Source: Escherichia phage St-1. Taken from it: a DNA stretch of 6,094 nucleotides. The position numbers and the translations under genes are program-made. The DNA lies in sequence record GQ149088. One strand, written 5' to 3'. Below, one piece after another: positions 3,031-6,093 of the stretch. A model generated the notes under the pieces. It was not told the origin of the DNA. It did no database searches and saw only the letters and a list, made by a program, of their open reading frames with translations. Position 1 is the stretch's first letter. Every line of letters starts with the position of its first letter.

Positions 3031-3034
3031 TTAT

Positions 3035-3053
3035 GAGCCCTTCGGGGCTCTTT
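3035..3053 (+). terminator. J-F intergenic hairpin with UUCG tetraloop (terminator or mRNA-stabilising structure)
   Basis: GAGCCC (3035-3040), TTCG loop, GGGCTC (3045-3050), then TTT. phiX174 has an analogous GGGGC-TTCG-GCCCC hairpin after J. Confidence 0.5.
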
Positions 3054-3065
3054 AAGGAAAATTAA

Positions 3066-4361
3066 ATGTCTAATGTACAAACTTCCGCTGAACGTGAAAT
3101 TGTTGACCTTTCTCATCTTGCCTTTGACTGTGGCATGATTGGTCGTTTGAAAACTGTTTCATGGACTCCTGTTATTGCTGGCGATTCCTTTGAGCTTGAT
3201 GCTGTTGGCGCTTTGCGTCTTTCTCCTCTGCGTCGTGGTTTAGCTATTGACTCTAAGGTTGATTTTTTCACTTTCTATATTCCGCATCGCCATGTTTATG
3301 GTGACCAGTGGATTCAATTTATGCGTGATGGTGTTGATGCCGCACCACTCCCTTCCGTTACTACTACTCAGTATCCGGATGACGCTGGTTATGTTGGTAC
3401 TATTGTTCCTAAGAGCAACCGTATTCCTAAGTTTTTGCATCAGTCTTATCTGAATATTTATAATAACTATTTCCGTGCGCCGTGGATGCCTGAGCGTACT
3501 GAAGCTAATCCTTCAAATTTAGACCGTGATGATTCTCGCTATGGATTCCGTTGCTGCCATCTTAAAACTATTTGGTCTGCTCCTCTTCCTCCGGAAACTA
3601 AGCTCGCTGAGCAAATGGGCATTGAAAGCAATTCCATTGATATTATGGGTTTGCAGGCCGCTTATGCGCAGCTTCATACTGAGCAGGAGCGTACTTATTT
3701 CATGCAGCGTTATCGTGATGTTATCTCCAGCTTTGGCGGTTCAACCTCCTATGATGCCGATAACCGACCGTTGCTTGTTATGCACACCGATTTCTGGGCT
3801 TCCGGTTACGACGTTGACGGTACCGACCAATCTTCCCTCGGACAGTTTTCGGGTCGAGTCCAACAGACGTTTAAACACTCAGTGCCTCGATTCTTCGTGC
3901 CGGAGCATGGTGTCATGATGACTTTGATGCTGGTTCGCTTCCCGCCTATCAGTCCTTTGGAGCATCATTATCTTGTTGGTCGTAATAATTTGACTTATAC
4001 CGACCTTGCGGGTGACCCGGCTTTGATTGGTAATTTGCCGCCACGTGAGATTTCTTATCAGGATCTTTTCCGTGATGGTCGTCCGGGCATTAAGATTAAG
4101 GTTGCCGAGTCTATCTGGTATCGTACTCATCCGGATTATGTTAACTACAAGTATCAGTTACTTGAAGGTTTTCCGTTCCTTGATGATGCGCCCGGTACGA
4201 CTAGTGGTGATGACCTTCAGAAGGCTATTCTCATTGACCATAATGACTATAATGCCTGTTTCCAGTCTCAGCAGTTGCTTCAGTGGAATAATCAGGCTCG
4301 TTATAATGTCAATGTTTATCGTCATATTCCTACTGTTCGTGATTCTATTATGACCTCTTGA
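3066..4361 (+). CDS. F: Major capsid protein F
   Basis: 431 aa, alignable along its whole length to phiX174 F by recall (MSNVQTSAER, ALRLSPLRRGLAIDS, YGFRCCHLK, SIDIMGLQAAYA, QFSGRVQQT.KHSVPRFFVPEHG, TRDSIMTS). AAGGA lies 7 nt upstream. Confidence 0.97.
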   Translation: MSNVQTSAEREIVDLSHLAFDCGMIGRLKTVSWTPVIAGDSFELDAVGALRLSPLRRGLAIDSKVDFFTFYIPHRHVYGDQWIQFMRDGVDAAPLPSVTTTQYPDDAGYVGTIVPKSNRIPKFLHQSYLNIYNNYFRAPWMPERTEANPSNLDRDDSRYGFRCCHLKTIWSAPLPPETKLAEQMGIESNSIDIMGLQAAYAQLHTEQERTYFMQRYRDVISSFGGSTSYDADNRPLLVMHTDFWASGYDVDGTDQSSLGQFSGRVQQTFKHSVPRFFVPEHGVMMTLMLVRFPPISPLEHHYLVGRNNLTYTDLAGDPALIGNLPPREISYQDLFRDGRPGIKIKVAESIWYRTHPDYVNYKYQLLEGFPFLDDAPGTTSGDDLQKAILIDHNDYNACFQSQQLLQWNNQARYNVNVYRHIPTVRDSIMTS

Positions 4362-4364
4362 TTC

Positions 4365-4393
4365 ATGGGCCTTCGGGCCCATTAAGGATTTTT
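4365..4393 (+). terminator. F-G intergenic hairpin with UUCG tetraloop, followed by a T-run
   Basis: ATGGGCC (4365-4371), TTCG loop, GGCCCAT (4376-4382): a perfect 7-bp stem. TTTTT at 4389-4393 is separated from the stem by 6 nt and overlaps the gene G ribosome-binding site. Confidence 0.5.
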
Positions 4394-4394
4394 C

Positions 4395-4958
4395 ATGTAT
4401 CAAAATTTTGTTACTAAGCACGATACCGCCATTCAGACATCCCGTTTTTCTGTTACTGGTAGTATCACTCCTGTTGCGCCTACTGGTAATATCCCTGTTA
4501 TCAATGCTGGTAATATTACTGCTGAGCATGCTGTTGTTAATCTTTATGCTAATTTGACCGCTGGCACTTCTTCTGATGGTTCTTTTATTGTTGCTATGAA
4601 GGTTGACACCTCTCCTTCTGACCCTAACTGCGTTATCTCTGCTGGTGTTAACCTTAGCTTTGCTGGTACCTCATACCCGATTGTTGGTATTGTTCGTTTT
4701 GAGTCTGCTTTTGACCAGCCCACTTCTATTGCTGGTAGTCAGATTGAGCATTACCCAATTGAAATGTCTGTAGGTTCTGGTGGTGTTTGTTCTGCTCGCG
4801 ATTGCGCTACTGTTGATATTCATCCTCGCACTTTTGGCAATAATGTTTTTGTTGGTGTGATTTGTTCTAGTGCTAAATGGACCTCCGGTCGTGTGCTTGG
4901 TACCATCGCTACGACTCAGGTTATTCGTGAGTATCAGGTCCTTCAGCCGCTTAAATAA
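4395..4958 (+). CDS. G: Major spike protein G
   Basis: 187 aa with phiX174 G-like motifs (RFESA/RFESS, DC.T.D..PRT.GNNV.VG, VI.E...LQPLK C-terminus). AAGGA lies 6 nt upstream. Confidence 0.95.
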
Positions 4959-5041
4959 AAGGCCGCCGCACTCCCGGTTATGTGTCTGCCCAGTGTAGGG
5001 CGGACCGAGCCGTACGGAGATACCCGATAAACTAGGAACGT

Positions 5042-5068
5042 GGAAGGCGTTAGCCGCCTTCCCTCCTG
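5042..5068 (+). promoter_or_regulatory. Candidate complementary (-) strand origin element: hairpin plus adjacent CTG primase start site
   Basis: GGAAGGCG (5042-5049) pairs with CGCCTTCC (5055-5062), a perfect 8-bp stem with loop TTAGC, followed by CTG at 5066-5068, within a 136-nt GC-rich G-H intergenic region. DnaG-dependent origins of G4-type phages are hairpins with a CTG initiation site. Confidence 0.4.
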
Positions 5069-5094
5069 CTAAGCCCAAAAAAGGAGCTTACAAT

Positions 5095-6093
5095 ATGCTT
5101 GGAAGTATCATTGGAGGTATTGGCTCATCGCTGCTCGGAGGACTTGCTTCCGGCGGTATCTCCAGTCTCCTTAATAAAATGTTTAGTAAAATGCCAGAAC
5201 ACGCCGCCTCTTCTGCTGGCCTTACTAATGGTCAAGGAACTATTGGTATGGATACTGACGCTGGCATTCAGTCTGCTATTCAGGGCTCTAATGTTCCTCC
5301 TGCTGGTCAATTGCCTGCCTCTAATACCTCTGGTGTTATGGCTGATGCTGGTAATATGATTCGTAATGCTGGCAGAGCTTTGCTTGACGGTACGATTCAG
5401 GCCGGTTCTGACAAGGTTAAAGAGGCTCTTATTGATAAGTTGGTTGGAGGTAATGATGCTAAAGACCGAGGAAAGGCAACCCGTGATTACTTGGCAGCGG
5501 CTTTCCCTGAGCTCAACCCATGGGAACGTGCTGGAGCTGATGCTTCCACTGCCGGGTTAGAGTCTTCCGCTCAGAATCAACAAAAAGAGATGCTTAAAAT
5601 GCAACTGGATAACCAGAAGGATATTGCCAAGATGCAGATGAATAACAATTTGCAGATTGCTGGCATTCAGTCCGCTACATCTCGCCAGAATACGAAGGAT
5701 TCTGTTTATGCCCAGAATGAGATGCTTCAGTATAATCAACGTGAGTCGCAGGCACGCGTTGCGTCCATCCTCGCCAACACTGACCTTACGACTAAGCAGG
5801 CCACCCATGAAATTATGAGGATGGCTCTTACCCGCGCTCAGGAGACTGGTCAGCATTTGACTAACTCTCAGATTATGGCTTTGGAGAAAAAGGTTTATGC
5901 AGAAATTGGCAAAATTCATCAAGATACTCAAAATTCTCGCTATGGTAGCTCTCAAGTTACTGCCGCAGCGAAAGACGTTACGAATATGATTACTGACGCC
6001 TCTTCAGGCTTTGCTGATTGGGCCTCTCAGCAGTGGAATTCATTCTTTAAGGATGGTAAGTCTGATGGTATTCCTCTCAATACCAGAAAATAA
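5095..6093 (+). CDS. H: Minor spike / DNA pilot protein H
   Basis: 332 aa with a Gly-rich N-terminus (GGIGSSLLGG) and long stretches matching phiX174 H by recall (AGI.SAIQGSNVP, TRDYLAAAFPELN.WERAGADAS, LDNQK.IA.MQ, IAGIQSATSRQNTKD.VYAQNEML, NSRYGSS). AGGAG lies 8 nt upstream. Stop TAA 6091-6093. Confidence 0.95.
   Translation: MLGSIIGGIGSSLLGGLASGGISSLLNKMFSKMPEHAASSAGLTNGQGTIGMDTDAGIQSAIQGSNVPPAGQLPASNTSGVMADAGNMIRNAGRALLDGTIQAGSDKVKEALIDKLVGGNDAKDRGKATRDYLAAAFPELNPWERAGADASTAGLESSAQNQQKEMLKMQLDNQKDIAKMQMNNNLQIAGIQSATSRQNTKDSVYAQNEMLQYNQRESQARVASILANTDLTTKQATHEIMRMALTRAQETGQHLTNSQIMALEKKVYAEIGKIHQDTQNSRYGSSQVTAAAKDVTNMITDASSGFADWASQQWNSFFKDGKSDGIPLNTRK

Follow-up and report, generated by a model that had tools for sequence, protein, structure and literature searches.

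Analysis of the complete genome of the microvirus St-1 (GQ149088; 6094 nt, here called the window) indicates that the intergenic region between genes G and H is very probably the origin of complementary-strand (minus-strand) synthesis, a G4-type single-strand initiation signal carried on the packaged + strand. For this genome the assignment draws on homology and covariation, on the position, strand and conservation of the element and on its presence as a single copy, all read from the sequence and its comparison with relatives. The same evidence supports the identification of the spacer with the primase-dependent complementary-strand origin of the alpha3/St-1/phiK group, which is already known and was sequenced in 1979. 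We present as new the absence of stem-loop II in the alpha3 group, the covariation in stem-loop III and the existence of plasmid homologs; to the mechanism itself nothing new is added.

Every gene of the window is encoded by the + strand, in the order A, B, K, C, D, E, J, F, G, H. Phage Lilleven shares 95% identity with it, phiK shares 94% and alpha3 shares 92% (genus Alphatrevirus); phiK and alpha3 are also named as the most similar genomes in the published description of the St-1 genome. Gene G ends with a TAA stop codon at 4958 and the ATG of gene H lies at 5095, leaving a spacer of 136 nt (4959–5094, + strand) with a GC content of 57.4%, against 45.2% for the genome. The spacers between J and F (3031–3065) and between F and G (4362–4394) measured 35 and 33 nt, respectively. 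These values bear out the original prediction, made from the raw sequence, which had described the J-F and F-G spacers as short (about 35 nt) and the G-H spacer as GC-rich and 136 nt long. As delimited by the open reading frames and the alpha3 annotation, the spacer contains the origin element followed, at the 3' end, by an AAGGAG ribosome binding site for gene H (5081–5086, + strand), which lies 8 nt 5' of the ATG and belongs to the spacer, not to the origin. The equivalent site is annotated as an H ribosome_binding_site in the alpha3 record M25640, which has no origin annotation. The origin was in fact unmarked in every alpha3-group record that we examined, so its coordinates can be transferred to these records from G4.

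The G-H spacer was the only segment of the genome to align with G4 over its full length. In the G4 reference record an 'RNA primer of replication' is annotated at 3970–3997 and a rep_origin, 'origin of compl. strand synthesis', at 3998, both inside a 136-nt spacer between F and G. Identity of the St-1 spacer was 80.5% over 127 nt to the F-G spacers of the G4 group and 76% over the full length to G4 itself, and a 120-nt core matched the annotated G4 origin with 76–80% identity at 100% coverage. Priming at G4ori needs primase and SSB only and starts at the T of a 5'-CTG-3' located 3' of the stem-loops, with a primer of up to 28 nt (PMC6783573, 2019). In the primer that we derived from the G4 annotation, the first C falls at position 9, in agreement with that study. 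The CTG of the window at 5066–5068 falls on the same alignment columns as the G4 CTG at 3996–3998, where the primer template ends at T3997.

Folded as ssDNA, the G4 origin forms three stem-loops, III, II and I. G4oric and the window share the length of the spacer, Hairpin I, the CTG 3 nt after its stem, the TCCCTNCTGCNAAGCC block, the base helix of stem-loop III and the central GACCGNGCC-TACGGAGATAC block. They differ in location, the element lying between G and H in the window but between F and G in G4 (Gequatrovirus), and in stem-loop II, which is present in G4 and missing from the window. Smaller differences concern the helix of stem-loop III (7 bp in the window versus 9 bp in G4), the loop core (GCGTTAGC versus GCGAAAGC) and one pair of the Hairpin I stem (A:T versus C:G).

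A closer relationship is seen with the origins of St-1's own group. The paper of Sims, Capon & Dressler (1979), cited in PMC13037366, announces in its title the dnaG-dependent origins of St-1, phiK and alpha3. According to PMC13037366, which cites the 1979 paper, Hairpin I of St-1 and alpha3 has an 8-bp stem in which GCGTTAGC replaces the GCGAAAGC of G4. Positions 5042–5062 of the window correspond exactly to the form quoted there, with GCGTTAGC at 5047–5054. Identity of the G-H spacer was 97.8% to phiK and 94.8% to alpha3, and the window is essentially without difference from the St-1/phiK/alpha3 origins, a few spacer bases differing from phiK; the window being St-1, the spacer would be the very element that was published. 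The original prediction had placed the alpha3, St-1 and phiK origins between G and H and had proposed an alignment with these and the G4 origin. We found no statement in the accessible literature that places the alpha3-group origin between G and H. The element occupied this position in 17 of 17 alpha3-group genomes whose flanking genes were checked. The alignment brought the G4 and St-1 CTG columns together and returned Hairpin I in the form given in PMC13037366.

Hairpin I (5042–5062, + strand) consists of a perfect 8-bp stem, whose arms GGAAGGCG (5042–5049) and CGCCTTCC (5055–5062) are 100% complementary, and a 5-nt loop, TTAGC. As ssDNA it was the dominant fold of the region, with an energy of −9.4 kcal/mol and a z of −4.0; none of 200 shuffled sequences folded as well. 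In the alignment 100% of cells were paired across 22–23 relatives, with a compensatory change at pair 5045/5059, which is A:T in the alpha3 group, including the window, and C:G in the G4 group. The GCGTTAGC core (5047–5054, + strand) is an instance of the GCGNNAGC 'mini-hairpin' motif, which is given together with the St-1/alpha3 sequence in PMC13037366 (a 2026 review). Natural variants of the core were GCGTTAGC, GCGCAAGC, GCGTAAGC, GCGAAAGC, GCGTAGC and GCGAAGC, which vary at the N positions only; at the two N positions, which lie in the Hairpin I loop, the bases were TT, CA, TA or AA, or else one T or A alone. The next three bases of the loop, A5052, G5053 and C5054, were invariant in 23 relatives and in plasmid copies of the element. 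An invariant A-G-C beside free N positions fits, without proving, the mini-hairpin proposal of the review.

The hairpin runs into a conserved start-site block, TCCCTCCTGCTAAGCC (5060–5075, + strand), which contains the predicted initiation triplet CTG at 5066–5068, with the start expected opposite T5067. The triplet sits 3 nt 3' of the Hairpin I stem, a spacing also found in G4, and its columns were invariant in 23 of 23 sequences and in the plasmid homologs. From T5067 the predicted RNA primer AGGAGGGAAGGCGGCUAACGCCUUCCAC (5040–5067, − strand) would be copied leftwards through Hairpin I; its length of 28 nt is set by analogy with G4, and 22 of the 28 positions are identical to the primer derived from the G4 annotation. 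The perfect 8-bp hairpin at 5042–5062, the CTG immediately after it and a primer begun opposite T5067 had all been put forward in the original prediction, together with a resemblance to the G4 primer start. The hairpin, the triplet and the resemblance held, and the reverse complement of the template yields the predicted primer as it was written there. A competing pairing in the fold of the window, between AGGA and TCCT (5034–5037 with 5064–5067), would bury the start T; it was ruled out, not being conserved in G4.

Hairpin and triplet are statistically weak when taken alone. The window contains one perfect 8-bp hairpin with a loop of 3–8 nt, whereas shuffled genomes contained a mean of 0.5 and a maximum of 3, and with 140 CTG triplets in the window the chance of finding one at the observed distance from the hairpin is about 13%. 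The case for the element rests on comparison with other genomes, through homology and conservation. Annotated phages, viral contigs and metagenomes together yielded 23 distinct copies, from whose alignment we built a covariance model, R1. In the window the model gave a single match, at 4955–5099 on the + strand only, with a score of 170 bits, the next match in the window scoring 9 bits; it found no second copy in the 757-nt region between H and A and nothing above noise in phiX174. Two metagenome microviruses outside the training set scored 179 bits at the same G-H position, and in six phages of the G4 group the element lies between F and G. In Microviridae the packaged strand is the gene-sense strand; the element is present as a single copy on the + strand, which also carries all of the genes.

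In relatives with an F gene about 70% identical and a gene G of which only about 10% can be aligned, the core of the spacer was 93–98% identical, and such identity beside a nearly unalignable G implies a strong constraint for a noncoding stretch. That the hairpin arose by chance, in a spacer that serves only to hold the ribosome binding site of H, is scarcely credible. One such hairpin per 6-kb genome and one nearby CTG are, as the shuffles show, within what chance allows, but this reading is refuted by the conservation data: the near-identity of the core next to so divergent a gene, the compensatory changes both in Hairpin I and in the base of stem-loop III, and a homology that links different genera, persists at another intergenic position and extends to plasmids. 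Gene G itself (4395–4958) occurs in the alpha3 group as two very different types, with about 37% protein identity and nearly unalignable DNA. This split beside a conserved spacer (4959–5078) suggests either that a boundary of recombination lies at the stop codon of G or that the spacer is under very strong constraint.

The 5' part of the element is a conserved block, AAAGGCCGCC...GGGCGGACCGAGCCGTACGGAGATACCCG (4959–5026, + strand), homologous to the stem-loop III region of G4 and the conserved single-stranded stretch that follows it. Its columns were mostly invariant among 23 sequences from two genera, and the pattern GACCGNGCC(N)TACGGAGATAC occurred once in the window and in 0 of 200 shuffles. 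A long-range helix (4961–5006, + strand), the counterpart of the stem-loop III base in G4, pairs 4961–4967 with 4999–5003 and 5005–5006, leaving A5004 bulged. In the alignment 99.4% of its cells were paired. Two of its pairs had undergone compensatory Watson-Crick changes, 4964/5002 from C:G to T:A in 5 sequences and 4965/5001 from G:C to A:T in 2 sequences, where slid controls showed none. The equivalent helix is present in the minimum-energy fold of G4; in the window its energy is −4.5 kcal/mol. The minimum-energy fold of the window contains instead a local hairpin, GTCTGCCC / GGGCGGAC (4984–5005, + strand; −6.8 kcal/mol), an alternative that competes for positions 4998–5005 and that was kept across relatives only through G:T wobbles, with no two-sided change. 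The 5' domain thus has two mutually exclusive folds, of which the local one is the stabler in the window but only the long-range helix covaries in Watson-Crick fashion. An outer pairing of the same minimum-energy fold (4961–4965 with 5006–5011) was rejected on inspection of the alignment, since Lilleven and NC28 would have A:C mismatches in it and alpha3-type sequences would have T:G.

Between the 5' block and Hairpin I lies a variable linker (5027–5041, + strand) in the position of G4 stem-loop II, and it contains no equivalent hairpin. Of the six pairs of the G4 stem-loop II helix (GGAGAT/GTCTCC), four were unpaired in 17 of 17 alpha3-group sequences, and at this position 47% of cells were paired in the alpha3 group, the same as in slid controls. 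The absence of stem-loop II means that the architecture is not identical to that of G4, and its lack in all 17 sequences assigns the window to an alpha3/St-1 subtype as opposed to a G4 subtype. The comparison suggests that stem-loop II may be dispensable and that the functional core would consist of Hairpin I with GCGNNAGC, the CTG block and the base of stem-loop III.

In phages resembling phiX174, weak terminators follow J, F, G and H, and a hairpin that follows G might be read as one of them. It would then act mainly as a transcription terminator, or as a stabiliser of the mRNA 3' end after G, and its conservation would reflect control of H expression. The hairpin does lie on the mRNA-sense strand, right after the G stop codon and 5' of the H ribosome binding site, and it is GC-rich and stable. 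We nevertheless regard this as very unlikely to be its main role. The Hairpin I stem is followed by CTCCTGCTAAGCCC, with no T-run, and an intrinsic terminator at this hairpin is unlikely; a scan for promoters and terminators returned no site of either kind in the G-H spacer, though it did find a site after H. Conservation extends over about 120 nt, including a 5' block and a CTG block that are superfluous to a terminator, the G4 counterpart follows F and not G, and the plasmid homologs are antisense to all genes. A secondary role of the hairpin in the mRNA is conceivable alongside its function as an origin. An Rfam search of the window (E ≤ 1) gave no match. The site found after H, at 25–60, directly adjoins the stop codon of H and is made up of a 15-bp stem and the T-run behind it; no other terminator-like site in the genome is as strong, and the late transcripts probably end there.

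The related microvirus phiX174 starts its complementary strand by a PriA-dependent primosome route. Its assembly site (the PriA or n' site, in the F-G spacer) does the same job as the element described here and is likewise intergenic among the late genes, but it works by a multi-protein primosome, unlike an origin served by primase and SSB alone. Were St-1 to use a site of this type elsewhere, the G-H hairpin would be incidental, and the 757-nt H-A region would be roomy enough to hold it. We consider this highly improbable. Comparison of the phiX174 F-G spacer with the window gave only chance word matches of 8–10 nt, the G-H spacer had no match in phiX174, and the window's own F-G spacer has only 33 nt; a phiX-type primosome site was excluded at the sequence level. 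The G-H spacer is instead homologous to the primase-only origin of G4, and the 1979 title, for its part, calls the St-1, phiK and alpha3 origins dnaG-dependent. The H-A region (1–757) has a GC content of 42% and an open reading frame at 23–349 (108 aa), and it is less conserved than the G-H spacer, with 77–93% identity among relatives. A near-consensus sigma-70 promoter-like site (TTGACA, 18-nt spacer, TATATT; 11/12 matches) at 695–724 lies directly upstream of gene A, which starts at 758, and may be the gene A promoter. The St-1 genome paper describes putative extra genes in the H-A region that are common to alpha3 and WA13 and absent from phiX174.

If the G-H spacer acts as a G4-type origin, the steps would be those described for G4, with the Hairpin I sequence published for St-1 and alpha3 and with T5067 as the predicted start nucleotide. 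On entry of the ssDNA into the cell, SSB would, by homology with G4, coat the strand. Hairpin I (5042–5062) and the 5' stem (4961–5006) would resist or phase SSB and leave flanking SSB-free stretches, to which the host DnaG primase could bind without DnaB or a PriA primosome. DnaG would then start an RNA primer opposite T5067 of the 5'-CTG-3' and carry it leftwards across Hairpin I, to a length that in G4 reaches at most about 28 nt, after which extension by DNA polymerase III would produce the double-stranded replicative form.

The element also occurs outside phages. A homolog of window positions 4959–5075 is present in four records of small E. coli plasmids, of which two measure 9653 bp and two 8009 bp. 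It is located at 1083–1201 on the − strand of CP057337 (also in CP057350) and at 867–985 of the locus taken from NZ_CP062859 (also in NZ_CP062904). The homologs showed 80% and 73% identity and scored 99 and 84 bits with the phage model. They keep the 5' block and TCCCTCCTGCTAAGCC, but where the phages have Hairpin I they carry a different sequence, which folds weakly and has a GCGAAGC core. The plasmid copies lie on the strand opposite all annotated genes and, in the 9.65-kb plasmid, within about 1.7 kb without convincing open reading frames. Among the products of this plasmid are an AlpA-like HTH protein, a resolvase and a protein that resembles the small terminase subunit of Sf6, a combination that suggests a phage-satellite-like episome. 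Among 5,426 complete E. coli genomes the element was found in two, and in neither on the chromosome. An Rfam search of the two plasmid loci at the gathering threshold gave no match and thus identified no ColE1-type RNA there.

Primase-only priming sites of the G4 type (ssi) have been reported in older work on F, R100/R1, R6K and ColE2-type plasmids. It is possible, if rather doubtful, that the G4-type origin of about 120 nt is a portable module and that its plasmid copies could act as primase-only priming signals, a reading that draws on sequence comparison. What may speak for it is the use of the F-G and the G-H slot in two genera, the near-invariance of the element beside a swapped spike gene G, and the plasmid copies themselves. 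Parts of this reading may already stand in the older literature.

That a reading of the raw sequence without tools correctly placed a classical replication signal is one outcome of this work. Four comparative details may help to dissect what DnaG and SSB recognize: stem-loop II is lacking, stem-loop III covaries, the loop keeps an invariant A-G-C, and homologs exist on plasmids.
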